This document shows, piece by piece, positions 3,928 to 61,308 of a DNA stretch of 64,000 bases. The notes beneath the pieces were generated by a model. It worked only from the letters and a program-made list of their open reading frames with translations, was not told where the DNA came from and ran no database searches. Source of the DNA: an uncultured archaeon. GTDB taxonomy: Archaea; Asgardarchaeota; Thorarchaeia; Thorarchaeales; CAZPUN01. The stretch covers positions 2,135-66,134 of the forward strand of contig CAZPUN010000023.1 in NCBI GenBank assembly GCA_964589775.1, in the 5' to 3' direction. Numbering within the stretch: the stretch's first letter is position 1; each line of letters starts with the position of its first letter. A program made the position numbers and the translations under genes.

Positions 3928-5016
3928 ATGAAACAGCAAGTCGAAGTTTATTATGGTCCTCAGCATCCTGGAACGCATCCGTTTTCAATTCTTCTCAAGC
4001 TTGATGGTGATATCATAATTGATGCAGAGCCCAAAATAGGCTATGTTCATCGTGCTATAGAAAAATTAGCCGAGTATCGCGATTTCTATCAGAACATCCC
4101 CATTATGGAACGTGCATGTTTTCTCGAAGATCTGATTCATGAACATGGATATATGATCGCTGCAGAGAAGCTTCTGGGTGTTGAAATTCCAGAGCGCGCA
4201 GAATATTTGCGTGTTATTACTGCCGAACTAAGCCGTATTATTAGTCTTTTAATGTGGTTCAGTATGTTCGGTGGTGAAACAGGTCTTAGCACGACATTCA
4301 TGTGGGGCTTTACAGACAGAGAAAAATTACTTGATATTATGACTGAAATTACAGGTGCGCGTGTTGCATTTGCATACTTCCTACCTGGTGGTGTGCGATG
4401 GGACTTTCCTGAAGGTATTGAGGATAAGCTTAGAAAATATCTTGACTATCAAGAAGAACAACTAGATGTCTATAAAGGACTATTAATGGATAATTCAATC
4501 TTTATAGACCGTACCAAGGGTGTGGGCGTTGCAGATCCAGATACGCTCATAAAGCTTGGAGCATCCGGTCCCGTTCTTCGTGCAAGTGGATTCAAATACG
4601 ATCTTCGTGTTGATGCACCCTATGGTGTATATGATCATTTCAAGATCGATACCCCTGTTCTTCATAATGGCGACTCATATGACCGTACTATGATTCGTCT
4701 TATGGATATTAAAACAAGTATTGACATTGTCCGCCAAGCGTTAGACCAATTACCTTCAGGAGATGTACGTGTTAAAGTGCGTTCCAAGAAGAAAGCTGCA
4801 CCTGGCGCAGTATATTCTCGCGTAGAATCTGCAAGAGGTATTTTGGGCTACTATATAATTTCTAATGGAACAAACAAGCCATATCGAATTAAGATTCGTG
4901 GGCCTTCGTTCTCTCATATGTATGTATTTCCACACTTAATTCGCGGTCTTCATCTGGCTGATGTTCCTATGGTATTGGGCACATTAGACGTATGCCCTGC
5001 AGATCTGGATAGGTGA
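3928..5016 (+). CDS. nuoD: NADH-quinone oxidoreductase subunit D (49 kDa), no NiFe-binding Cys pairs
   Basis: N-terminus YGPQHPGTHP, C-terminus LGTLDVCPADLDR. The RxCGxC / DPCxxC hydrogenase motifs are absent, so this is a Nuo/Fpo-type subunit, not a hydrogenase large subunit. Confidence 0.9.
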   Translation: MKQQVEVYYGPQHPGTHPFSILLKLDGDIIIDAEPKIGYVHRAIEKLAEYRDFYQNIPIMERACFLEDLIHEHGYMIAAEKLLGVEIPERAEYLRVITAELSRIISLLMWFSMFGGETGLSTTFMWGFTDREKLLDIMTEITGARVAFAYFLPGGVRWDFPEGIEDKLRKYLDYQEEQLDVYKGLLMDNSIFIDRTKGVGVADPDTLIKLGASGPVLRASGFKYDLRVDAPYGVYDHFKIDTPVLHNGDSYDRTMIRLMDIKTSIDIVRQALDQLPSGDVRVKVRSKKKAAPGAVYSRVESARGILGYYIISNGTNKPYRIKIRGPSFSHMYVFPHLIRGLHLADVPMVLGTLDVCPADLDR

Positions 5017-5996: not shown

Positions 5997-6435
5997 AATG
6001 GGCAGACTTGGATTTCTAAAAAGTATGTATCTGACATTTAAGCAGTTTTTCAGAAAGCCAGTCACAGTGTTATATCCTGAAGAGCGAATTCCCGATTTCT
6101 CACGATACCGTGGAATTCACTTATTAAATATGCAAAAATGCAAGGGTTGTAACCTATGTGGTATGGCTTGTCCTAACTTTGCCATTAAAATGGTTGAGCG
6201 ACTAAATCCAAAAACTGGTAAAATGTCCAAATATCCCGAGATCAATATGGCACGTTGTATGTTCTGTGGATTATGCGAAGATGCATGTCCATTAGATTGT
6301 TTGAAGCTCGGGGGAATATATGACTTTGCAACTGATTCATTTGAAGAATTAATATTTCCCCCTGAAAAACTAGCGGAGTTATGGGAACAAAGATTCGGTA
6401 CTCCCGCATTATTAGAATCAAAATCAAATGAGTAA
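5983..6435 (+). CDS. nuoI: NADH-quinone oxidoreductase subunit I (2x[4Fe-4S] ferredoxin, TYKY)
   Basis: CKGCNLCGMACP and CMFCGLCEDACP motifs. Confidence 0.9.
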   Translation: MEEYKMGRLGFLKSMYLTFKQFFRKPVTVLYPEERIPDFSRYRGIHLLNMQKCKGCNLCGMACPNFAIKMVERLNPKTGKMSKYPEINMARCMFCGLCEDACPLDCLKLGGIYDFATDSFEELIFPPEKLAELWEQRFGTPALLESKSNE

Positions 6436-7939
6436 ACGAGGGATGATCAAAGTGATTGCATATTCATTAACACTTGCATTGGTAATACCTGCAGTATTTG
6501 CTTTAGTGATATTTGCAGGTCGTGGAAAATTAGGTAAAGCAAGTGGGATTTTAGCATCAATTTCATTATTATTCTCGGCATTTCTAATCCTTTCAAACTA
6601 TTTTGAAATTGCAAGTGCAGGAGTAGTTCAAGAGTCCTACGTCTGGTCAGACTATCTAGGGCTTACTATGGGCCTATTATTGGATTCACTAAGCTTCCCA
6701 TTAACTTCTATGATCGCCATACTTGGACTAGTAGTTTCAATTTATAGCGTTGAATACATGAAGGATGACAGTAAGAAAGAATCTTTCTTTGGTCACTTTC
6801 TGTTCTTCTACATTGGCATGTTAGGTGTTACCCTAGCAACAAACTTGTTTGAGTTCTACTTCTTCTGGGAACTCATGTTAATTCCATCATACTTCTTAAT
6901 TACAATCTGGGGAACACCTGAGCGTGCAAGAAAAATTGGTGTGAAATACTTCCTATTCACTCATGTTGGAGCACTTGCAATGCTTATTGGTATTGCATTT
7001 ACTTATGCACATGCTGGCACTTTCGATATTGCTGCGATTCCTGCAGCTCTAGCTGGTTTGGATGTCTCAATTACATTACCTATATTTGTATTGTTTGTAA
7101 TTGGGTTCGCTGTTAAAATGGCAATATTTCCGTTCCACACATGGTTGCCAGATGCACATGGTGAAGCACCCACACCAATCAGCGTTTTGCTTAGTGGTGT
7201 CATGATCGAAACAGCTGGATATGCACTTTTGCGAATTGCAGCAGCTTTCTATCCCAATGCATATCAACTTAGCTCATTCTGGTTAATGACATTCTCCGTG
7301 ATCACAATGATTTACGGCGGAATGATGGCACTTGTTCAAACAGATATCAAAAGATTGCTTGCATATAGCAGTGTTAGCCAGATGGGCTATGTAATGTTTG
7401 GCTTATCTTCTGCAACATTACTTGGTGTCATTGGTGGTATGTTCCATATAGTTGTACATGCACTAGGAAAGGGTATACTCTTTATGACTGCAGGAGTTGT
7501 AATGCATCAAGCTCATCACTTACGAGACTTGACAAAAATGGGTGGTCTGGGTAGAAAAATGCCAAAGACTGCTGTTATTGCATTCATCGCTGCATTAAGT
7601 TTAGCAGGAACTCCTCCACTTGGTGGATTTGTAAGTGAATTCTTCATATTCTCAGGTGGTTTGACCTCTGTTATTGCTTACGGTACAACTCTGGCATATG
7701 TGATCGGTGCATTTGCATTATTGAGCTCCATACTCTCTGCAGCTTATATGCTTAGATTACTATGGAAAGTATTTCTAGGTCCAACTCCAGAGCACTTGAA
7801 TGATGTGAAAGACCCCTCAATATTAATGTGGGGCTCCATGGCAGTATTGGCTATTCTAACCGTGGGCTTTGGTTTATTCCCAGGCTTAATGGTAGATATC
7901 ATCAGCCATTCTGCGCATGCGCTCTTAAACATTCCATAG
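6428..7939 (+). CDS. additional NuoM/NuoN(MrpD)-family antiporter-like subunit
   Basis: 503-aa polytopic protein with the WLPDAHGEAPTP motif of the NuoM/N/MrpD family. It sits between nuoI and nuoL. Confidence 0.75.
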   Translation: MSKRGMIKVIAYSLTLALVIPAVFALVIFAGRGKLGKASGILASISLLFSAFLILSNYFEIASAGVVQESYVWSDYLGLTMGLLLDSLSFPLTSMIAILGLVVSIYSVEYMKDDSKKESFFGHFLFFYIGMLGVTLATNLFEFYFFWELMLIPSYFLITIWGTPERARKIGVKYFLFTHVGALAMLIGIAFTYAHAGTFDIAAIPAALAGLDVSITLPIFVLFVIGFAVKMAIFPFHTWLPDAHGEAPTPISVLLSGVMIETAGYALLRIAAAFYPNAYQLSSFWLMTFSVITMIYGGMMALVQTDIKRLLAYSSVSQMGYVMFGLSSATLLGVIGGMFHIVVHALGKGILFMTAGVVMHQAHHLRDLTKMGGLGRKMPKTAVIAFIAALSLAGTPPLGGFVSEFFIFSGGLTSVIAYGTTLAYVIGAFALLSSILSAAYMLRLLWKVFLGPTPEHLNDVKDPSILMWGSMAVLAILTVGFGLFPGLMVDIISHSAHALLNIP

Positions 7940-10025: not shown

Positions 10026-11477
10026 ATGGAGCTAGGACTAATATCAATACTCTTACTAATTCCCTTGATTGCCGCCGTAATTGACTATGCTGGCGGTGTG
10101 AAGTCTCCCAAATTTGCCAAGTACTTTGCAATACTCACCACGACAGTAGTATTCATCTATAGCATGTATTTCCTTATGGTGTTTGATCCTACTAATGGTG
10201 GTATGCAGCTAATAGAAAGTTATGAATGGATGCCTGCATTTGGATTAACATTCTCTGTTGGTCTTGATGGCATAAGTCTTCCATTACTATTGTTGGGTAC
10301 CTTCATGACTATGATTGCAACAGCTGCATCACCTTGGATGATTCACCATCATGAAGCAGAATATTATGGATTGATGCTATTATTTGAAGTAGGACTGTTA
10401 GGTGTCTTTGTCAGCACAAATCTAGTATTGTTCTATGTGTTCTGGGAGCTAGTCCTAGTTCCCATGTTCTTCATGATTGCAATTTGGGGAGGCCCTACAA
10501 GAAAATATGCTGCAATGAAATTCTTCATCTTTACGCATGTAGGTAGTGTGTTGATGCTTGTCAGTATCATGGGCTTTTACTTCTTCTCAAGTCCTCATAC
10601 TTTCAACATTCTACAATTATCCAATGTATTTCCAGCTGATTTGCAGTTCTGGCTTGCATTGGGTATATTCTTCGGTGCTGCATTCAAGCTACCTGCAGTC
10701 CCCTTCCATACATGGTTACCCGACGCACATGTGCAAGCCCCCAGTCCTGCAAGTGTACTACTTGCCGGTGTTCTGCTTAAGATGGGTGGTTATGCATTCA
10801 TTCGTCTTGGTATCGGCTTAGTTCCTCAAGGTATGCTACAACTTGCACCATTCCTTGCGATCATGGGTGTGATCGGTGTATTCTATGCTGCTTATGCGGC
10901 AATGGGTCAAAAGGACATGAAGAAATTAATTGCATTTTCAAGTATTAACCACATGAGCTTTGTACTACTTGGTGTTGCTGCCGGTACTGTAATGGGTATA
11001 GTTGGTGCAGTATTCCAAATGGTCAGCCATGGTGTAATCATCGGTATGCTCTTCCTTATTGCTGGAATAATTCAGCATCATGCGGGTACTCGTGATATTC
11101 CAGTGCTTAAGGGACTTGGCAATTCACTACCAAAGCTTAGTCTTCTATTAATATTTGCATCATTTGCATCATTTGCTGCTCCACCGTTAAGCGGTTTCAT
11201 TGCTGAATTAACTGTATTAATTGCAGCGTTAGTTGTATTCCCACAAATTTGGATTACTGTATTTGGTGCTGCAGTTACCACTGGTCTTTTCCTGTGGCTG
11301 ATTATTAGAACCATTTACAGTGAGCCTGATGAGCATACTGTGAAAGTATCTCCTATTAGCAAATGGGAGTTACTTCCTGTTGCAATCTTAGTAATACCAA
11401 TTGTCCTGCTGGGTCTATTCCCAGGGCTCTTGTTCGAATTGATCAAGGCTACTGCAGGACTGTTAGCGTTTAGGTAA
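10026..11477 (+). CDS. nuoM: NADH-quinone oxidoreductase subunit M (ND4)
   Basis: 483 aa; WLPDAHVQAPSPASVLLAGVLLKMGGY motif. Confidence 0.8.
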   Translation: MELGLISILLLIPLIAAVIDYAGGVKSPKFAKYFAILTTTVVFIYSMYFLMVFDPTNGGMQLIESYEWMPAFGLTFSVGLDGISLPLLLLGTFMTMIATAASPWMIHHHEAEYYGLMLLFEVGLLGVFVSTNLVLFYVFWELVLVPMFFMIAIWGGPTRKYAAMKFFIFTHVGSVLMLVSIMGFYFFSSPHTFNILQLSNVFPADLQFWLALGIFFGAAFKLPAVPFHTWLPDAHVQAPSPASVLLAGVLLKMGGYAFIRLGIGLVPQGMLQLAPFLAIMGVIGVFYAAYAAMGQKDMKKLIAFSSINHMSFVLLGVAAGTVMGIVGAVFQMVSHGVIIGMLFLIAGIIQHHAGTRDIPVLKGLGNSLPKLSLLLIFASFASFAAPPLSGFIAELTVLIAALVVFPQIWITVFGAAVTTGLFLWLIIRTIYSEPDEHTVKVSPISKWELLPVAILVIPIVLLGLFPGLLFELIKATAGLLAFR

Positions 11478-18417: not shown

Positions 18418-19919
<1,502 letters not shown>

Positions 19920-25814: not shown

Positions 25815-26093
25815 CTACAAGTCCTATTGATTTTTGTACCCATTTAAATTGCTGACTATTACGATTATATTAGAATTTTGAATGTTATTCTCAAATTTGA
25901 AGTTTTATACCAAATAGCCATGTTCAGAATCAATCTTTTTTGATATTGATTAATCATAGTTTGCGCTTTCTATGTCAAATATTGAAAATTTATGTGCTCA
26001 ATAACTAAACATTTAAGTTTCTTATTCCACTTAATTTAAATAGGAATAAATTTGATTAAACACTGGAATATATCGCGAATGGGTGGCTAGGCA

Positions 26094-26426
26094 ATGATGG
26101 AATTAAGTATGTTACTGCAGGTAAATATTATAATACTTGCAGCACTATGTTTCATTGGGGTATTATACTTACTAGCGCGTAAAATGGCGCCTCCACCAAG
26201 AACTTCTGGTGCTGCAGTTGAGCCGTATGGCTCAGGTGAAAAAGTAAAAATTGGAAAGCTAAAGTTCAGGGCACAAATGCTGAATTTTGTATTCATGTTT
26301 ATTGTATTTGAGTCGTTGATATTATCAATTCTTGCATGGCAAGTAAATCCACTTGCTGTTAGTGTATATCTAATTGTGACCCTGTTCGCATTGCTTGCTA
26401 CAAAGCAATGTACTACAGTTTGTTAG
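26094..26426 (+). CDS. NuoA-like small membrane subunit (second complex-I-like module)
   Basis: VEPYGSGE...FIVFESLILSILAW follows the NuoA pattern (PYECG..FDxE..FLFPWA) in divergent form. Confidence 0.55.
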   Translation: MMELSMLLQVNIIILAALCFIGVLYLLARKMAPPPRTSGAAVEPYGSGEKVKIGKLKFRAQMLNFVFMFIVFESLILSILAWQVNPLAVSVYLIVTLFALLATKQCTTVC

Positions 26427-26429
26427 GAG

Positions 26430-26882
26430 TTGATATTAGTGGTTCTTGCAAAAATTGCAAAATGGGCTAGGTTAAAGTCACCTTGGGTTATCCACATGAA
26501 TAGTGGTAGCTGTAATGGGTGTGATATTGAAATAGTAGCGGCATTGACTCCTCGTTATGATCTTGAACGCTTTGGTGTCAAATTAATGGGTAGTCCTAGG
26601 CACGCAGATATTATGCTTCTTACTGGTACTATGACTGCACAGGCTAGAGAACGAGCAATTCGTGTTTATGAGCAGATGGCCGAGCCAAAGTTTGTTGTTG
26701 CAATTGGAAGTTGCGCTTTAAGTGGCGGTGTTTTTGCAGGTAGTTACAATACATTAAAAGGAGCCGATAAAGCTTTACCAATTGCTGCGTATGTGCCTGG
26801 TTGTCCACCTAAGCCTGAAGCAATTATTCAAGCCGTAGCAGCCCTATTAGAAAAGCTCGAAAAAGGTGAAAGCAATGAGTGA
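26430..26882 (+). CDS. NuoB-like / group-4 [NiFe]-hydrogenase-type small subunit
   Basis: GSCNGCDIEI ... GSC ... PGCPPKPE. The four proximal-cluster Cys ligands are arranged as in Mbh/Ech/Hyc small subunits rather than the CCxxE arrangement of NuoB. Confidence 0.8.
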   Translation: MILVVLAKIAKWARLKSPWVIHMNSGSCNGCDIEIVAALTPRYDLERFGVKLMGSPRHADIMLLTGTMTAQARERAIRVYEQMAEPKFVVAIGSCALSGGVFAGSYNTLKGADKALPIAAYVPGCPPKPEAIIQAVAALLEKLEKGESNE

Positions 26883-27354
26883 TCAAAATTTAGCAGCTGA
26901 AAATGAAATAGTATCCATGCTGAAGAAATATTTGGGTGACGACTTAAAGGACATTAATATTCAGCGTCGCCATAGAGTGTGGGCTGAGATTCCCGTTTCA
27001 AAACTAAGAGATACACTCCAATTCTTAATTGATAATCGCAACTTGTACTATTTATCCACGATAAGTGGAGTTGACATGAAAGATCATTTTGAAATGCTAT
27101 ATCATTTGTTCTTGCATGAAGATAAGATTGAGTTGACCCTTACAGTAAAATTACCCCATGATAACCCTTCAGTCCCCACGATTATTGATCTATTCCCTGG
27201 TGCTGATATGGCTGAACGTGAAGCACATGAAATGTTTGGTATTAATATTGAGGGTCGTGATGAAGAACTAAAGCATGTGGAACTTCCAGATACGTGGCCC
27301 GAAGGTCAATATCCACTCAGAAAGGATTGGAGTGGAAATAATGAGGAAGCCTGA
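26866..27354 (+). CDS. NuoC-like (30 kDa) subunit
   Basis: AEREAHEMFGINIEG...LPDTWPEGQYPLRKDW. Confidence 0.75.
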   Translation: MKAMSDQNLAAENEIVSMLKKYLGDDLKDINIQRRHRVWAEIPVSKLRDTLQFLIDNRNLYYLSTISGVDMKDHFEMLYHLFLHEDKIELTLTVKLPHDNPSVPTIIDLFPGADMAEREAHEMFGINIEGRDEELKHVELPDTWPEGQYPLRKDWSGNNEEA

Positions 27355-27364
27355 GGTGAAGTAA

Positions 27365-28417
27365 ATGGAGATTATTATGGAATCCCTTATGTTTTTCTTG
27401 CAAGTATTGATATTTCCCGGAATATTCTTCCTGACATTTGTTGCTCTATTGTGGGAATGGGTAGACCGTAAATTTTACGCTAAATTACAGAATAGAGTAG
27501 GGCCTTATTTCACAGGTAAGAAAGGGTTCCTACAGCCTCTTGCCGATTTCTTAAAATTATTGTCTAAGGAAGATCTAACTCCTGAACAGAGTAACAAGCG
27601 TGGGTTCAAAGCAGCTCCAATTGTAATCGCAATTACAATTCTATTCTTATTGATGTTTATACCCATCACTGGTGCAAAAGGAATTATTTCATTTGAAGGC
27701 GACCTTCTATTTGTTTTGTTTGGGTCTTCATTGATCATGGCTGTAATTATGCTTTCTGGATGGTTTTCATCAAGTCCTTTTGCTATTGCGGGTGGTACTC
27801 GTACCGGATTGCTTATGATTGCTTATGAATTGCCATTAATTATTTCCTTACTAACTCCTGCAGTTATCGTCGGCAGTCTAAATATATCCACAATTATCAC
27901 GTATCAACTAACTCACGGCTTACCATTTATTGCAATATTTCCAATAATGTTTGGATTTATAATTTATGTCATCGCATTAGAAGCAGAACTAGAACGAGTG
28001 CCATTCGATGTTTCACATGCTGAAACTGAAATTGTTGCAGGTTGGAAAGTAGAATATTCTGGTAAAAAACTGGCATTGCTCTCGATGGTTTCAGATCTCG
28101 AACTAGTGTTTGGCGCAGGTATTGCAACAGCTATATTCTTAGGCGGCCCCTTCTTGTTTGAATTTATTCCACTTGATTGGGCTCAGTCTATTGCTACTCT
28201 TGCGGCTACCACATACTTTGGATTACTGTATTATCCTCTAGTATTCCTGTTCAAGTCTTTCTTGATAATATTAATACTAAGCTTGTTTAGAGCTCTAATG
28301 GCTCGTCTAAGAATTGACCAAATTATAAATGCGTCATGGAAAATTTTACTTCCTCTGGCAATTTTGGTGCTATTACTAGTACATTTGCCGAGTGTATTAG
28401 CATTATGGGGGCTATAA
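27365..28417 (+). CDS. NuoH-like membrane subunit
   Basis: VGPYFTGKKGFLQPLADFLKLL and AELERVPFD motifs. It directly follows the NuoC-like gene, with no NuoD-like gene between. Confidence 0.8.
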   Translation: MEIIMESLMFFLQVLIFPGIFFLTFVALLWEWVDRKFYAKLQNRVGPYFTGKKGFLQPLADFLKLLSKEDLTPEQSNKRGFKAAPIVIAITILFLLMFIPITGAKGIISFEGDLLFVLFGSSLIMAVIMLSGWFSSSPFAIAGGTRTGLLMIAYELPLIISLLTPAVIVGSLNISTIITYQLTHGLPFIAIFPIMFGFIIYVIALEAELERVPFDVSHAETEIVAGWKVEYSGKKLALLSMVSDLELVFGAGIATAIFLGGPFLFEFIPLDWAQSIATLAATTYFGLLYYPLVFLFKSFLIILILSLFRALMARLRIDQIINASWKILLPLAILVLLLVHLPSVLALWGL

Positions 28418-28418
28418 T

Positions 28419-28787
28419 ATGTGTCCAGTTCCTGGTAAGATGATTGGTGAATTGCTAAGGCATGCTTTCAAGAAGAGCGCAACAACTTCATATCCTTTGT
28501 CAAAGGATGAAGTCAATATTCCCCAAGATTTACGTGGCAAATGGGAATTGTATTTGGACAAATGTATTGGATGTAGTCTGTGTGAGCGCGTATGTCCATC
28601 ATTTGCCATAGTCATGGTTGAATGCCGTGAGGGTGAAACTACAAAGACAGGAAAGCGTCCAATTTGCCACATTGATAAATGTGTATTTTGCGCTCAATGT
28701 GAAGAGACATGTCCAACAAAAGCAATAAAATTAACACAAAACTTTGAGCTCGCGTTATTCAATCGTGAGAATGGCGTAATTGAGTAA
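28419..28787 (+). CDS. NuoI-like 2x[4Fe-4S] ferredoxin subunit
   Basis: CIGCSLCERVCP and CVFCAQCEETCP. Confidence 0.8.
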   Translation: MCPVPGKMIGELLRHAFKKSATTSYPLSKDEVNIPQDLRGKWELYLDKCIGCSLCERVCPSFAIVMVECREGETTKTGKRPICHIDKCVFCAQCEETCPTKAIKLTQNFELALFNRENGVIE

Positions 28788-28832
28788 TAATCTTCTTTTT
28801 ATTCTTTTTTTACATTTTTTAAAAATATCTGT
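28788..28832 (+). terminator. oligo-T terminator after the second Nuo-like module
   Basis: Sequence tcttctttttattctttttttacatttttt. Confidence 0.35.
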
Positions 28833-54921: not shown

Positions 54922-55420
54922 TCTAAGGTCGCTCCTTGTTCCTTTTGATTTAAATAGAAGAAACATCTATTAACAGTGTTTATATTTTGCTTATAAATTT
55001 TCACGTTAATATATCATTTTTTATATCTTTATATCTATTTTTTAGATTTATTCGGTAAATATTTTATACTTTTGTGATGATTACAATGTTTAGTGGGCTT
55101 TTTATGTTATGTTTGTAAGATTAATTACGTGATTTTTAATTTATACTTTTTATAATAGCGCCAAAAATCATTTTTAATAAATTTTTGATTACAAAATGTA
55201 TCTTATTATTTTATTATCTGCTATTTTATTTTTTAATTTTCTTTATATTGTATATATTTATTCAATGCTTACTATCTGCATATTATTTCGTTCTAAAACT
55301 GACATTTTATTAATGAATGCGAACGCCAAAACGAAAGATTTAATGATATGAACAACAATCTTTTAACTAAAAAGAAACACAATTTGATTGTGTAATAAAA
55401 AAACACGGGGAACGCGGACT

Positions 55421-55690
55421 ATGGAAATATTGGAACTCATACAAATTGGGTTCATGGTACTTACAGTAGTGTTCGTCATAGTTGCCCTTGAATATAAAGA
55501 CATAATATATTCGTTAGTTGCCTTTGCAGCGGCTAATGCCTCACTGGGTATATTGTTCTTATTCCTGGGTGTTGTATTTGTAGCATTAATTCAATTCAGT
55601 GTGTTTGCAGTTGCAATCGTTGTACTTGCTTTGGCAACATTAGGTATGATCGGAAATCATGACGAACGATTTGATGAACCCAGAAAATAA
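55421..55690 (+). CDS. small membrane subunit, NuoJ N-terminal-half/MbhD-like (Mrp-type module)
   Basis: Three TM helices; IQFSVFAVAIVVL resembles the NuoJ core. First gene after a ~450-bp AT-rich spacer. Confidence 0.4.
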   Translation: MEILELIQIGFMVLTVVFVIVALEYKDIIYSLVAFAAANASLGILFLFLGVVFVALIQFSVFAVAIVVLALATLGMIGNHDERFDEPRK

Positions 55691-55705
55691 GAGGTGACTA
55701 GGCTA

Positions 55706-55990
55706 ATGAAATATAAAATTGTGTCTGCCATATTATGTATTTTGATCCTAATACTGATATTGCCAGTTATACTTAATTTTCCGCTTTTTCAATTAGGATC
55801 GCCAGTAACGACCATACCTGTAGAAAATTTTGGTCAAATTGGTCATTTACTGGGTGAGTATCTTTGGACATATCGCGCTCCAGATGTGATTGCACAAGCT
55901 TTTATTATATTTGCAGCATCATGGGGCATTTCTGCACTATTTAGAGGTTCTGAGGAGGATTCAACATGTCAATGTTCAACTTCTACTTAA
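55706..55990 (+). CDS. small membrane subunit, MbhE/MrpB-like
   Basis: gaggtga RBS then MKYKIVS...; two TM segments plus a soluble tail; position equivalent to the second NuoJ-like piece in Mbh clusters. Confidence 0.35.
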   Translation: MKYKIVSAILCILILILILPVILNFPLFQLGSPVTTIPVENFGQIGHLLGEYLWTYRAPDVIAQAFIIFAASWGISALFRGSEEDSTCQCSTST

Positions 55991-56289
55991 TTACTGCAGC
56001 TGTTTTGTACTTTCTAGGTTTCTATGGTCTAGCGAGTACAAAAAACATGATAAAAATTGTAATATCTCTGGAAGTACTCGTTATGGCTGTAAATCTGAAT
56101 TTCATAACATTTGCAGCATTTGCTAATGGTGGTGTTGTTGGACTTGTGGATCCATTTGTACAGACCTTCGTTGTGATCTCTATTTTCATCGGTGGTGCAA
56201 TAGCTGCAATAGCATTATCTCTGATTTGGAACGCTTACAAGCATTATGGCACACTAGATGTTAGAGAGTTGAGCAGATTGAAAGAATAG
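55966..56289 (+). CDS. NuoK/MrpC-like subunit
   Basis: 107 aa; three TM helices; LEVLVMAVNLNFITFAAF pattern of the NuoK/MnhC family. Confidence 0.7.
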   Translation: MSMFNFYLITAAVLYFLGFYGLASTKNMIKIVISLEVLVMAVNLNFITFAAFANGGVVGLVDPFVQTFVVISIFIGGAIAAIALSLIWNAYKHYGTLDVRELSRLKE

Positions 56290-56301
56290 GGAGGCTAGGT
56301 T

Positions 56302-58248
56302 ATGATTGAAGGTGCACCATATTTAGTATTTGTAATTCCGTTACTTGGCGCGCTCATTACTCCCCTTACTGCAAAAATTCATCCCAAGGTACGAGACTTT
56401 ACTGCAGTTATTCTTGTATTTTTGTCTGGTGTAATGGCATTATCCATGCTTCCAGATGTACTTGCAGGATACACTGGCGAAATATCTGTACTTTGGATGC
56501 GAATATCCCCTACTGTAGTAATTGAAGCGGGAGTTATCGTTGATCCATTAAGCGTATTTCTAGCATTAATTGCAACATGCATCGGCGCGCTCATTATGCT
56601 TTACAGTTTAGGTTATATGAAGGGCGATAAATCCTTAACCCGTTATTGGTTCTGGATGCAATTGTTTATTGGTGGAATGGTTCTGCTTGTTATGGCCAAC
56701 AACTTCCTGCAGTTATTTGTAGGATGGGAAGTTGTAGGTATGTGTTCGTATGCGCTGATTGGATTTTGGTATGATAAGACCGAACCAAGTCCTGTTCCTG
56801 ATTATCAATTCGAAGGCCAATACAACTCATATTGCGGAATGAAAGCTTTTATCGTCACACGAATTGGTGATATTGGTCTTCTCAGTGCAATATTGATTAT
56901 CTTTGCAGTTAGCGGAACCTTCAATTTTCATCAATTGGAATCTAATGGATTCGGTTGGATGACCAACCTTGTACATCTTGGTATATTGCCGATTGTACTA
57001 GTATTATTGTTTGGTGGTGCTATCGGGAAGTCTGCACAATTTCCGCTTCATGTATGGTTACCTGAAGCAATGGCAGGTCCTACTACAGTATCTGCATTAA
57101 TTCATGCGGCAGCAATGGTAAAGGCTGGTGTTTACTTAGTCGCTAGAGTTGTACCAATCTTTATGGCCGCCGCAGAAGCTGGTGTGATTGGAGTAGATGT
57201 TTTCTTTACAACAGTAGCTTGGATTGGTGCATTTACTGCATTTCTAGCAGCATCTATGGCACTTGTACAGACAGAAATTAAGAAAGTTCTAGCATACTCG
57301 ACTGTATCTCAACTAGGATACATGTTTCTTGCACTTGGAGTATCCGGATTAATTGCAGAAAGTACGGTTGCATACTTTGCGGGGTTATTCCACCTACTTA
57401 GTCACGCATTGTTCAAGGCACTCTTGTTCCTTGGTGCTGGTGCAGTTTTGCACTCAGTTCATTCTAAAGATATGCGTGATATGGGTGGTCTTCGTAAAGA
57501 AATGAAGATTACATTTGCCACATTTCTTGTAGGTGCCTTCTCTCTCAGTGGAATTCCTCCATTTATGGGATTCTTCAGTAAGGAATTGATCCTTGATGCA
57601 CTATGGGAAAGTGGTCACACAATATTATTCTTGATCGCTGTAATCACTGCATTGTTTACAGTATTCTATTCATTCAGGATGGTCGGTCTTACATTCTTTG
57701 GTGAAAAGAGTGAACATATCAAGAAAATGGAAGCTGAAGGCAAGCATATACACGAAGCTCCTGCTGTAATGTGGATCCCCCTTGTAATTCTTGCCGGTTT
57801 CAGTGTGATTGGTGGATTCTTACAACCCAATATTGTACAGTATTTCCACCTTGAGCATGCCAGTGAAATTCCATTCCTACAAATTGGCATTCCTACATTG
57901 GCAACTGCATTGGTTGTGATCGGTGGTTTAGTTCCTGCATGGTGGCTGTACATTGCTAGAAAGAGTGATCCTGCAAAATTCACAATTAAACCAATTCAAA
58001 CATTCTTAGTCAACAGATGGTATATCGATGCATTCTACAAGAAAGTGTTTGTAGGTGGAACATTAAAGATCGCCTCTGGAATTAATTATCTTGAGAAGCA
58101 GTTTAACAGGCTCAATGTTGCTGTTGGAAATGGTATGAGCCGTGTATCTAGGGGCTTTGCAAAGACACAAACAGGAATCCTAAGCGTTAATATTCTTGGA
58201 ATGCTGCTTGGGATTGTTCTATTCCTGTTGTTCTTGCTGTATCTGTAG
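56302..58248 (+). CDS. NuoL/MrpA-like antiporter subunit
   Basis: WLPEAMAGPTTVSALIHAAAMVKAGVYL motif; 648 aa with C-terminal extension. Confidence 0.8.
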   Translation: MIEGAPYLVFVIPLLGALITPLTAKIHPKVRDFTAVILVFLSGVMALSMLPDVLAGYTGEISVLWMRISPTVVIEAGVIVDPLSVFLALIATCIGALIMLYSLGYMKGDKSLTRYWFWMQLFIGGMVLLVMANNFLQLFVGWEVVGMCSYALIGFWYDKTEPSPVPDYQFEGQYNSYCGMKAFIVTRIGDIGLLSAILIIFAVSGTFNFHQLESNGFGWMTNLVHLGILPIVLVLLFGGAIGKSAQFPLHVWLPEAMAGPTTVSALIHAAAMVKAGVYLVARVVPIFMAAAEAGVIGVDVFFTTVAWIGAFTAFLAASMALVQTEIKKVLAYSTVSQLGYMFLALGVSGLIAESTVAYFAGLFHLLSHALFKALLFLGAGAVLHSVHSKDMRDMGGLRKEMKITFATFLVGAFSLSGIPPFMGFFSKELILDALWESGHTILFLIAVITALFTVFYSFRMVGLTFFGEKSEHIKKMEAEGKHIHEAPAVMWIPLVILAGFSVIGGFLQPNIVQYFHLEHASEIPFLQIGIPTLATALVVIGGLVPAWWLYIARKSDPAKFTIKPIQTFLVNRWYIDAFYKKVFVGGTLKIASGINYLEKQFNRLNVAVGNGMSRVSRGFAKTQTGILSVNILGMLLGIVLFLLFLLYL

Positions 58249-58259
58249 GAGGTGCAGAG

Positions 58260-59774
58260 ATGGTTCTATTTAACATACCCATTATTTCACAATATCCTTT
58301 GATGATTACTATTGCGTTACTGGTACTCGGTGCCATTCTTGCTGCGGTAAGCGGACGGAAATCCTCAAAGAGTGCAGCATCGGTTTCAGCACTATTTATA
58401 CTATTTGCGTTAATTATCAATTTCATACTGTTATATGATATATTGCAAGACCCCCAGACCGGATTTCTTAGCGGCCCATATCCGTGGCTAAGTATTTTCG
58501 ATGTAAATCTTGGCTTCTGGGCTGATGGCTTAAGTTTGCCTATAGTGGTTATGATTCTTGGTCTTAGCTTTGTTGCAATACTTTACAGTCATATATTCAT
58601 GAAGGAAATGAAGCGTCCTCAGACTTATTATAGTTTGATGATGCTCTTCATTGCAGCAATGATCGGAACATTATACTCTACAAACTTGTTGCAATTTTTC
58701 GCATTCTATGAATTCATGCTCTTTCCAAGTACTGCAATATTGATCTGGTATGGTACATCCGAGAATTATGAAGAACGTAAAAAGAATGGTTTGAAGTTCT
58801 TTGTTTGGACCAATTTTGGTGCATTAGCCTTAATGGTTGGATTAGCTGCAATCATTCTTGTTACGGGTTCTACAGACTTACTTTCTATTGCATGGAGTCT
58901 CGGTACAGTTCCCGCAAATCTTATGGGTCTTGTACAAATTGGAGCATTACTAATTGTTCTCGGATTTGGTGTAAAGATGGCAATATTCCCACTCCATATG
59001 TGGGCACCCACAACGTACAAAGAAGCACCATTACCGTTACTATTGCTTCTAAGTGCTGCAATGACAAAAACTGCAGCTTATGGAATTGCACGTATTGCTA
59101 TTCCATTATTTGCACCAAACTTGGTATCATATACTAATGGATTACTTGTAGTTTCATTAATTACAATGTATTATGGTGCTCTGGCAGCATTAGCGCAAAA
59201 GGACCTCAAAATGATGTTGGCTTACTCATCAATTTCTCAACTTGGGTATCTAATGTACGGTTATGCTACATTGAATATCTATGGTGTTGAAGGTGGTGTA
59301 TTCCACATACTCAATCATGGTCTTTTGATGGGTATTATGTTTGTAGCTGCTGGAGTCATAAAAATGCAGACTGGAACACTTGAGTTTGATAAACTCGGTG
59401 GATTAGCAAAGAAAATGCCAGTTACTGCAGTAGCATTTGTAACTGCTGCATTAGCTTTAGCCGGAACTCCCCCATTAAACGCATTCGCAAGTGAGTGGCT
59501 TATCTTTGAAGGGAGTGCTGCAGCAGGACACTTCTGGCTAACAGTATTTGCTATTATCGCAACTGGTCTGACCGCTGGATATTATCTATGGGCTGTCCGC
59601 CGTATATTCTTTGGTGTAGTTCCAGATGAGCTATCTGATGTCACTGATGGTCCCAAGCCATTATTATACGCTATGTTAATACTGACAGCTGTGATTGTGC
59701 TGATCGGTATCTTTCCGAACAGCATATTACACTACATACAGCCGTTTCTAACGGCTATTGTCGGAGGAGGTTAA
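58260..59774 (+). CDS. NuoM/MrpD-like antiporter subunit
   Basis: 504-aa polytopic protein of the NuoM/N/MrpD family (PLHMWAPTTYKEAPLP). Confidence 0.8.
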   Translation: MVLFNIPIISQYPLMITIALLVLGAILAAVSGRKSSKSAASVSALFILFALIINFILLYDILQDPQTGFLSGPYPWLSIFDVNLGFWADGLSLPIVVMILGLSFVAILYSHIFMKEMKRPQTYYSLMMLFIAAMIGTLYSTNLLQFFAFYEFMLFPSTAILIWYGTSENYEERKKNGLKFFVWTNFGALALMVGLAAIILVTGSTDLLSIAWSLGTVPANLMGLVQIGALLIVLGFGVKMAIFPLHMWAPTTYKEAPLPLLLLLSAAMTKTAAYGIARIAIPLFAPNLVSYTNGLLVVSLITMYYGALAALAQKDLKMMLAYSSISQLGYLMYGYATLNIYGVEGGVFHILNHGLLMGIMFVAAGVIKMQTGTLEFDKLGGLAKKMPVTAVAFVTAALALAGTPPLNAFASEWLIFEGSAAAGHFWLTVFAIIATGLTAGYYLWAVRRIFFGVVPDELSDVTDGPKPLLYAMLILTAVIVLIGIFPNSILHYIQPFLTAIVGGG

Positions 59775-59778
59775 ATAA

Positions 59779-61308
59779 ATGTTCGAAGAATTATTCCCGG
59801 TTGAACTGCTCCCCGTACTTCCAATAATCATTCCATTAGTTGCAGCATTAATTGTAGCTCTTGTAGGGTCAATATCTCGCCGCTCATGTGTTGGTAATAT
59901 TAGAAATGCCTTAGCGGTCCTCGGCTTCATTGTTACATTATATTCTGCATATCTACTTGCAAAGCGTGTAATCGACTATGGAATACAGACCTATGTCTAT
60001 AATTCGAATGCGCCTCCTCTTGGAGTTGTATTTGTCGCAGATATGTTCTCTGTATTCCTTGTGGTTATCTTTTCACTTATGGGTACTATAGTTTCAATTT
60101 ATTCATTAGGCTATATGAAACATGATACCGGTCTAACACAATACTACACATTGCTCCTCGTACTTATTGGGGCTATGAATGGTGTTGTTCTTGTTGGAGA
60201 CTTATTCACACTATACGTATTCTATGAACTAATGTCAATTGCAAGTTACGTCTTAGTTGCCTTTAGAAAAGACAATTGGGAACCAATAGAAGCCGGATTC
60301 AAATATCTTGTAATGTCCTCTGCAGGTTCAACATTAGTGTTGCTTGCAATGAGCTACTTGTATGGTATGATGGGATCATTGAATCTTGGCTATCTTGCAA
60401 ATGCAATGCTTCACACGACACCACAACCAATCTTCTATGTGCTAATCGCTTTGATTATTGCAGGATTTGGCGTGAAAGCCGCTATTGTTCCGTTCCATTT
60501 CTGGTTGGCTGATGCTCATCCTGCAGCTCCCAGCGGTATAAGTGCATTACTTTCCGGTATTGTAATAAAAACTGGATTATACGGCATTATTCGTGTAGGT
60601 GTATTAGTATTTCCAATTGCACTTTACAACTGGCCATTATTGTTGTCAATATTTGCAGTAATTACAATAACTTCTGGAAACCTATACGCGTTAATGCAGA
60701 AAGATCTTAAGCGATTGTTAGCATTTTCAAGTGTTGCACAGATCGGTTGGATTATGTTGGCATTTGGTACTGGAACACAATTTGGTTTTGCAGCAGGTAT
60801 TTTCGGAATAGCAAATCACGCAATTGTCAAGGGACTTCTCTTCTTAAATGCTGGTGCAATTATCCATGCCATTGGTTCAAGAAAACTTGATGATATGGCC
60901 GGTCTTGGTAAGAAATCGCCCATTATTGGAGCCTTTGTTGCGATTGGATTCCTTTCACTAATGGGTGTTCCACCGATGACTGGTTTCTGGACTAAACTAT
61001 TGATGTTCTTATCTGTAGTTTCAGTAGGTGGCATATATCTAGTATTTGCAGTGATATTCCTTCTTAACGCTGCAGTGGTTGTAGTATATTATCTCAGAGT
61101 TCTATTCAAAATCTGGTTCAGTGAGCCTGCAGAAACCATGGAGATTGAAGAAGGTCCAACTAAGAGCATGATATTTGCATTGGCAGCTCTATCTCTTCTA
61201 ACAATTATTTTGGGTATCTATCCCGAGTTCCTATGGCACTTTGCAAATAGTGCAGCCAGTGCATTAACAAATCTTACCCAATACATTAATTTAGTAATGT
61301 CCCCATAA
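59779..61308 (+). CDS. NuoN/MrpD-like antiporter subunit
   Basis: 509 aa; FHFWLADAHPAAPSGISALLSG motif. Confidence 0.8.
   Translation: MFEELFPVELLPVLPIIIPLVAALIVALVGSISRRSCVGNIRNALAVLGFIVTLYSAYLLAKRVIDYGIQTYVYNSNAPPLGVVFVADMFSVFLVVIFSLMGTIVSIYSLGYMKHDTGLTQYYTLLLVLIGAMNGVVLVGDLFTLYVFYELMSIASYVLVAFRKDNWEPIEAGFKYLVMSSAGSTLVLLAMSYLYGMMGSLNLGYLANAMLHTTPQPIFYVLIALIIAGFGVKAAIVPFHFWLADAHPAAPSGISALLSGIVIKTGLYGIIRVGVLVFPIALYNWPLLLSIFAVITITSGNLYALMQKDLKRLLAFSSVAQIGWIMLAFGTGTQFGFAAGIFGIANHAIVKGLLFLNAGAIIHAIGSRKLDDMAGLGKKSPIIGAFVAIGFLSLMGVPPMTGFWTKLLMFLSVVSVGGIYLVFAVIFLLNAAVVVVYYLRVLFKIWFSEPAETMEIEEGPTKSMIFALAALSLLTIILGIYPEFLWHFANSAASALTNLTQYINLVMSP

Follow-up and report, generated by a model that had tools for sequence, protein, structure and literature searches.

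An Asgard gene cluster of complex-I-like hydrogenase type without a large-subunit gene between C and H

Genes and features of locus 2

We analyzed a 64,000-nucleotide stretch of DNA from an uncultured archaeon (GTDB lineage Asgardarchaeota; Thorarchaeia; Thorarchaeales; CAZPUN01), referred to here as the window. It covers positions 2,135 to 66,134 of contig CAZPUN010000023.1 (assembly GCA_964589775.1) and is part of the ENA metagenome contig ERZ27262694 k141_518116 (205,129 nt). The subject of this report is locus 2 (26094-28787 of the window), in which five open reading frames (ORFs) on the plus strand lie head to tail in the order A-B-C-H-I, the letters being those of the corresponding Nuo subunits of complex I. 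A gene for the large subunit (D; NuoD or the [NiFe] subunit) is absent from this cluster, and its absence is real, lineage-specific, and evolutionarily stable. Two other loci of the window are referred to below: locus 1, a Nuo-type operon, and locus 3, a membrane arm. The features of locus 2 are:

25815..26093, plus strand: AT-rich intergenic region upstream of A, read directly from the sequence; putative archaeal promoter and 5' untranslated region
26094..26426, plus strand: A, NuoA-like small membrane subunit, 110 amino acids (aa) (weak match to Pfam PF00507; NCBIfam NuoA)
26439..26882, plus strand: B, hydrogenase-type small subunit of the NuoB/MbhJ family, 147 aa (Pfam, NCBIfam, motifs)
26875..27354, plus strand: C, NuoC/MbhK-like subunit, 159 aa (Pfam, NCBIfam)
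27355..27364, plus strand: C-H junction, 10 nt, GGTGAAGTAA, with a Shine-Dalgarno-like GGTGA inside
27365..28417, plus strand: H, NuoH/ND1-type membrane subunit, 350 aa (Pfam NADHdh, E 6e-81)
28419..28787, plus strand: I, NuoI/MbhN-type 2x[4Fe-4S] ferredoxin-like subunit, 122 aa (NCBIfam NuoI, E 6.5e-28)
28788..28830, plus strand: T-rich tract 3' of the I gene (TTTTTATTCTTTTTTT...), read directly from the sequence; likely an archaeal oligo-T terminator

The preliminary description of this DNA had placed A-, B-, C-, H-, and I-like genes back to back, with no D between the end of the NuoC-like gene at 27354 and the start of the NuoH-like gene at 27365. We found the ORFs at these positions. Only the 10-nt junction separates C from H, and this is the site at which relatives with the order A-B-C-D-H-I hold a large-subunit gene of ~1.2 kb. 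The genes are packed in an operon-like manner, with overlaps, abutting ends, and the short C-H gap: the start of C overlaps the stop of B at ATGAGTGA, and H and I are spaced by 1 nt. A TTTAAATA box lies ~52 nt 5' of the A start codon, in the same upstream region as a GGGTGG Shine-Dalgarno-like element.

The family matches of B, C, H, and I were to NuoB, NuoC, NuoH, and NuoI, with E values from 1e-28 to 1e-81 in Pfam and NCBIfam. B matched Oxidored_q6 (E 1.8e-32) and C matched Complex1_30kDa (E 4e-28) in Pfam; H scored 235 bits against NCBIfam NuoH and did not reach the equivalog cutoff of 305. The match of A to NuoA was weak (E 6e-4, under the Pfam cutoff); a small ORF homologous to A precedes B in 33 related loci. 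Depending on the start codon, B is 147-150 aa long (its ORF is open from a TTG at 26430) and C is 159-162 aa long (alternative start at 26866); the gene calls of B and H in the databases begin at other start codons. Both CxxCxxCxxxCP motifs of I are intact, Pfam reports two 4Fe-4S motifs in this subunit, and an identical I protein is recorded in NCBI, JGI, Logan, and ENA.

The small subunit B contains the motifs NSGSCNGCDIE (a CxxC), AIGSCALSGG, and VPGCPP. The four cysteines have the hydrogenase-type arrangement and are predicted to be the ligands of one [4Fe-4S] cluster. The preliminary description had set this arrangement against the canonical NuoB of locus 1, and the distinction holds. Locus-2 B (GSCNGC) shares ~70% identity with the small subunits of [NiFe]-hydrogenases from Chloroflexota, encoded in J-K-L-M-A-B-C-D-H-I-HycI operons with a genuine [NiFe] large subunit, and its best match among solved structures is MbhJ (6CFW_J; 181 bits, E 1e-52). 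In contrast, locus-1 NuoB has the tandem CC (CIACCSTE) and is only 38% identical to locus-2 B.

Related operons and the age of the deletion

We scanned the genomes of GTDB species, a set that does not include the species of the window, and annotated the 80 related loci by BLAST against the subunits of the window. D lies directly upstream of H in 71 of these loci, and every D examined has both NiFe motifs, RxCGxCxxxH and DPCxxCxxR. Nine loci are without an adjacent D, one of which (L079) is uninformative, as its contig breaks off shortly before H; the earlier statement that every known cluster has D at this position was thus too strong. Among loci of the Thorarchaeota type (Thor-type), D is directly upstream of H in 18/18, and all those uncut by a contig end have the order A-B-C-D-H-I.

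The relatives found with locus-2 H were all archaeal, mostly from Asgard archaea and Bathyarchaeia, with those from Thorarchaeota the closest (52-60% identity). The nearest H outside the lineage of the window (P0132, 60% identity) belongs to locus L093, which again has the order A-B-C-D-H-I. In neighbor-joining trees of B and of H, the lineage of the window is the immediate sister of the 18 Thorarchaeota-type loci. The family matches, this sister position, and the conserved residues described below identify C, H, and I as orthologues of subunits in D-containing operons.

Like B, locus-2 C had its best structural match in the membrane-bound hydrogenase (MBH) of 6CFW (MbhK, E 8e-16), while H was nearest NdhA and Nqo8 (151 and 136 bits, vs 82 bits for MbhM). 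This mosaic, with a complex-I-like H and MBH-like B and C, matches the published Asgard complex-I-like group-4 [NiFe]-hydrogenases, for which the novel subclades 4j-q were proposed (Appler et al., bioRxiv 10.1101/2024.07.04.601786) and which were also described by Valentin-Alvarado et al. 2024 (PMC11291895). Judged from its sequence, locus 2 is a D-deleted derivative of this known A-B-C-D-H-I operon and not a new class; the view of it as a second complex-I-like module of unknown type is not supported. D was ancestrally present in the operon.

A different departure from the usual gene order occurs in six loci labeled as Hodarchaeota, 'Promethearchaeota', or Odinarchaeota (L026, L027, L029, L054, L066, and L078). 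These have no separate C ORF and a large-subunit ORF of 577 aa, ~170 aa above the usual length, which is consistent with a C-D fusion and the order A-B-CD-H-I. Four of them (L027, L029, L066, and L078) have a second group-4 cluster, ordered D-H-I-B, 1-4 kb upstream. At locus 2, a C-D fusion or a hidden remnant of D was ruled out: C, at 159 aa, stops 10 nt short of H, and none of the frames gave a profile signal.

The A-B-C-H-I order without D was seen in five independent assemblies from ENA, NCBI, and Logan, and is therefore not an artefact. Besides the window, it occurs in an ENA contig (L001; B 93% and H 88% identical to the window), two NCBI assemblies (L088, GCA_053940065.1, on a contig of 319,811 nt, and L090, GCA_053985755.1; H 94% identical), and a Logan contig (L089). 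The C-H spacing is 10 nt in L001 and L088, and the genes flanking the cluster in L088 are syntenic with those of the window. Misassembly was ruled out, as the junction appears with differing synonymous and spacer bases in the ENA contigs, the two NCBI contigs, and the Logan contig.

Pairwise Nei-Gojobori comparisons among the window, L001, and L088 gave ratios of nonsynonymous to synonymous substitution (dN/dS) of 0.02-0.06 for all five genes of locus 2, with dS from 0.7 to >2, that is, near saturation. The ratios were 0.03-0.05 for A and 0.02-0.04 for B, comparable to those of neighboring housekeeping genes (SUI1 0.015, MetAP 0.03, PcrB 0.03). The five genes are under strong purifying selection. 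Pseudogenization, which the preliminary description had named as an outcome that would speak against its proposal, is not seen here: the ORFs are intact. Given the shared D-less order and the low dN/dS in the three lineages, the deletion of D predates their divergence.

The membrane arm and the search for a large subunit

The window contains genes for a membrane arm at locus 3, 27 kb away from locus 2:

55388..61308, plus strand: locus 3 membrane arm, J1-J2-K-L-M-N (Pfam, NCBIfam, identity to Asgard arms)
55388-55690 and 55694-55990, plus strand: NuoJ-like, split
55966-56289, plus strand: NuoK-like
56302-58248, plus strand: NuoL-like, C-terminal part full-length
58260-59774, plus strand: M-like
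59779-61308, plus strand: N/MrpD-like

The L, K, and N proteins of locus 3 are 44-53% identical to their counterparts in the J-K-L-M-N arms found next to A-B-C-D-H-I in Baldr-, Odin-, Asgard-, and Heimdallarchaeia loci. This identity favors the link between loci 2 and 3 made in the preliminary description, and locus 3 is presumed to be the membrane arm of the locus-2 complex. By homology, loci 2 and 3 together would supply ten of the eleven subunits of the known complex, one gene short.

A scattered organization of complex-I-like hydrogenase genes is widespread. The Thor-type loci, like the window, are without an adjacent J-N arm. In L037 (Thorarchaeota metagenome-assembled genome BLK6-1.bin.124, JAWOEX010000024.1), the order is A-B-H-I, and the same strand has a gene for a [NiFe] large subunit 8 kb upstream. 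Several loci have only H, or H and I, with no B, C, or D detected in their flanks (up to 10 kb): three from Hermodarchaeota (L028, L030, L077), L033 and L040, and two from Bathyarchaeia (L043, L072). L040 is the Atabeyarchaeum chromosome CP147780.1, and the contigs of L028 and L033 are short. H directly adjoins the J-K-L-M-N arm in the two Bathyarchaeia loci.

One large-subunit homologue was found in the window:

3928..5016, plus strand: NuoD of locus 1, the only large-subunit homologue in the window (tblastn, profile hidden Markov model)

A tblastn search of the window with this NuoD returned only the self-match, and a profile hidden Markov model built from 74 large subunits and run with filters off against all six-frame segments of the window had its sole match at 3928-5016. 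No large subunit with the NiFe motifs (RxCGxCxxxH and DPCxxCxxH/R) was found at locus 2 in the window and its flanks. The locus-1 protein passes the NCBIfam NuoD equivalog NF004739 (424 bits vs a cutoff of 360). At the former NiFe motifs it reads ERACFLEDLIHEH and LDVCPADLDR, keeping the first Cys of each pair, and presumably it has Phe at the position of the quinone-contacting Tyr of canonical NuoD.

The large subunit holds the catalytic site and forms the coupling cavity with B and H, and in both MBH and complex I it is the chief partner of B and C in the structure. A long-standing loss of D should have left a mark. The identities to D-containing homologues from outside the Thor group were at least as high for the window as for the Thor subunits, with no sign of rate acceleration (B 0.59 and 0.58, C 0.34 and 0.31, H 0.46 and 0.44, and I 0.43 and 0.41, respectively). 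Defining conserved residues as those kept in at least 90% of the D-containing loci, the window retains 50/51 in B, 15/17 in C, 68/69 in H, and 19/19 in I, for a total of 152/156. The residues changed in C are H131R and P132D, which turn the near-invariant GHP of the NuoC family into GRD. GRD is found in each of the three D-less lineages and HP in 55 of 59 loci with D; no other clear sequence signature goes along with the loss of D. The lack of acceleration and the 152/156 residues kept argue that B, C, H, and I may still assemble around a large-subunit-type partner.

Our preferred reading, to which we give a probability of about 0.5, is that locus 2 is the A-B-C-H-I portion of an Asgard complex-I-like group-4 membrane-bound [NiFe]-hydrogenase operon from which the large-subunit gene was precisely excised, and that functional A, B, C, H, and I proteins would bind a large-subunit-type protein encoded outside the 64-kb window. 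The normality of gene scattering in this hydrogenase family makes a partner encoded elsewhere plausible. The complex would then be a ferredoxin-oxidizing, H2-evolving ion pump. By homology with MBH and ferredoxin-dependent complex I, reduced ferredoxin would donate to the two [4Fe-4S] clusters of I, electrons would pass through the [4Fe-4S] cluster of B to the active site of the large subunit, where protons would be reduced to H2, and the energy would be transmitted via H, A, J, and K to the antiporter-like L, M, and N, with export of H+ or Na+. We infer the existence and location of the partner, this chemistry, and the association with locus 3.

Several results weigh against a partner encoded elsewhere. 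No D was found in the window, in the adjoining 3.9 kb on the left and 10 kb on the right, or in the flanks (10 kb) of L088. The window has no HycI-type maturation protease, as is the case next to most Asgard loci, and the change from GHP to GRD in C hints at an altered contact. We also searched databases with Thor D; 8000 word-sharing candidates were scored and the best 120 were listed. From a calibration on 63 loci, the identity of an orthologous D to Thor D is predicted to be ~58% (standard deviation 3%), enough to place it among the 120 matches; no such sequence is among them. None of the 120 lies on the 205-kb or 319-kb contigs of the lineage, shows a preference for Thor relative to the other clades, or forms the sister branch of the Thor D clade. 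Equivalent searches recovered B, H, and I of the lineage at once, and at least five assemblies contain this lineage, among them unbinned metagenome assemblies. Since 8000 candidates were scored and 120 listed, this absence is weak to moderate evidence and not proof. Among the 600 matches listed from a metagenome scan with an alignment of D, none came from JGI sample 3300028908, that of the window.

Several candidates for a relocated D were considered and set aside. The singleton P0360 (locus L091) is unrelated and reflects a D-then-H arrangement of another low-GC lineage, and a second singleton, P0353 (locus L092; 52% GC), is unrelated as well. The sources of P0304-P0306 form a suggestive pattern, but their composition is unlike that of a low-GC archaeon, and they fall in a sister clade that holds bacterial-named matches. 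Amino-acid composition did not discriminate among D candidates, as locus-2 B itself has a low FYMINK/GARP ratio. The low-GC contig of L091 (GCA_012974985.1, JABAOH010061570.1) encodes a [NiFe] large subunit with no preceding B or C; a fragment of an ATP-synthase c subunit and a scaffold gap lie upstream of it, and a NuoH-like gene follows after a spacer of ~480 nt.

The large subunit may instead be truly gone, with A-B-C-H-I and J-K-L-M-N working as a membrane complex without D, possibly as an Fe-S-containing, Mrp-like ion-translocating module in which the cluster of B reacts directly with another acceptor or partner protein. We consider this possible but less likely than the preferred reading. 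In its favor, D is missing from the locus in all five assemblies, the remaining genes have stayed under strong purifying selection long after the deletion, C carries the lineage-specific GRD, and the missing HycI and the lack of a Thor-sister D among the 120 listed matches, despite the predicted identity, point the same way. However, the last of these is weak evidence given the 8000 candidates scored, and without D there would be neither a catalytic site nor the cavity between B, D, and H. The loss of D would deprive B and C of their main interface, but neither is accelerated, and 50/51 and 15/17 of their conserved residues, respectively, are retained; this unchanged constraint is hard to square with such a complex. 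We know of no member of the complex I, MBH, Ech, and Ehr superfamily that lacks D, and a literature search turned up none. That the operon is instead a decaying, non-functional remnant left by the loss of its catalytic gene is scarcely credible, since all ORFs are intact in the five assemblies, dN/dS resembles that of SUI1, MetAP, and PcrB even with saturated dS, and all cluster ligands and the family-conserved residues counted above are kept.

The preliminary description had also raised the possibility that the module borrows the NuoD of locus 1, so that two complexes would share a single large subunit. This NuoD is the only large-subunit homologue in the window, lies 22 kb upstream of locus 2 on the same contig (likewise in the relative), and retains the first of the two Cys at each former NiFe motif; an extra hydrogenase-type M in locus 1 points to an exchange of modules in the past. 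We nevertheless found no support for borrowing and regard it as improbable. Locus-1 NuoD is only ~36% identical to hydrogenase large subunits, and locus-1 NuoB only 38% identical to locus-2 B. As a self-sufficient operon, locus 1 encodes B, C, H, and I of its own, and the duplication of ten subunits with the sharing of one is unparsimonious. In a crude test for convergence, we took the positions at which locus-2 subunits depart from the hydrogenase consensus and matched them to the locus-1 paralogues; the fractions agreeing with locus 1 for locus 2 and for the mean of the other lineages were 0.15 and 0.25 (B), 0.29 and 0.33 (C), 0.20 and 0.19 (H), and 0 and 0.21 (I), which gives no sign that the locus-2 subunits converged towards locus-1 residues.

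To our knowledge, the large subunit is the one component kept by every characterized relative of complex I; in the lineage of the window, it has been stably dropped from the operon with all the other genes conserved. If D is encoded elsewhere, as we prefer to think, the locus would be an instructive case of operon fragmentation in Asgard energy metabolism and a warning against inferring the presence or absence of a hydrogenase from large-subunit screens or local gene order alone. If D is truly gone, this would be the first D-less member of the complex I and membrane-bound hydrogenase superfamily, and an ion-translocating complex of a new kind, linked to redox chemistry or ferredoxin and without a NiFe or quinone site; it would bear directly on the coupling of redox chemistry to ion pumping and on the hydrogenase origin of complex I in the archaeal relatives of eukaryotes.

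Elsewhere in the window, locus 1 has two NuoM-like genes (6428-7939 and 10026-11477), the extra one between NuoI and NuoL. The extra M is 44-51% identical to M subunits of group-4 hydrogenases from Asgard archaea and Bathyarchaeia (37-41% for locus-3 M), which suggests that the Nuo operon has taken up an antiporter subunit of hydrogenase type. At 18418-19919 lies a complete archaeal 16S rRNA gene on its own; with no 23S or 5S match in the 64-kb window, the rRNA genes appear to be unlinked. Next to the nuoA of locus 1, a tRNA match on the minus strand (1422-1515; 94 nt vs a model of 71 positions) probably contains an intron. The window, which comes from an Asgard archaeon, also encodes an archaeal TFB, a GGGP synthase, and a Roadblock/LC7 protein; ESCRT-III (Snf7) genes lie just downstream.

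Comparison with known systems

The Asgard complex-I-like group-4 hydrogenases are the closest known systems. Their A, B, C, H, and I are orthologous to those of locus 2, with the Thorarchaeota version as the sister clade, and both have a hydrogenase-type small subunit and an H that is NuoH-like and not MbhM-like. A NuoL with a full-length C-terminal part, antiporter-like M and N, and the lack of a NuoEFG module are also shared. Whereas the operons of these hydrogenases have a gene for the large [NiFe] subunit between C and H (18/18 Thor-type loci and L093), locus 2 has none, and its C has GRD where theirs has GHP. The operon of L037, which adjoins a divergent J-K-N-L-M operon, likewise has no large subunit between B and H; however, it lacks C and its D is 8 kb off, whereas the window keeps C and has no D within reach.

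Compared with the MBH of Pyrococcus furiosus (PDB 6CFW), B and C are nearest MbhJ and MbhK, and the gene order B-C-[L]-M-N corresponds to B-C-[D]-H-I. However, locus 2 has no equivalent of MbhL, its H is nearer ND1/NdhA than MbhM (151 vs 82 bits), and the arm of locus 3 is Nuo-like (L, M, and N), with no MrpE/F/G-like genes in the operon. The same absence of MrpE/F/G separates locus 3 (J1, J2, K, L, M, and N only) from an Mrp-type cation/proton antiporter, which combines MrpE, MrpF, and MrpG with MrpA/D-like subunits and has no Fe-S subunits; locus 2 would add the Fe-S subunits B and I.

The layout of the 11-subunit type (A, B, C, H, I, J, K, L, M, and N) and the complex I type of H and L are shared with complex I and ferredoxin-dependent NDH-1; as in the latter, ferredoxin input at I is presumed and NuoEFG is absent. 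Unlike in respiratory complex I, B has CxxC (CNGC) and not the tandem CCxxE with which NuoB ligates cluster N2, and locus 2 has no NuoD (49 kDa), the subunit that makes up the quinone site with NuoB and NuoH; a separate Nuo-type operon is present as locus 1 of the same window. Ehr (energy-converting hydrogenase-related) complexes, as Marreiros et al. are said to have described in 2013, keep a large-subunit homologue without the NiFe cysteines, and their small subunit is often without cluster ligands. Like Ehr, the complex encoded by locus 2 would be a hydrogenase-derived membrane complex that may have given up hydrogenase chemistry; unlike Ehr, locus 2 is without any large-subunit homologue, and its B keeps all four cysteines.

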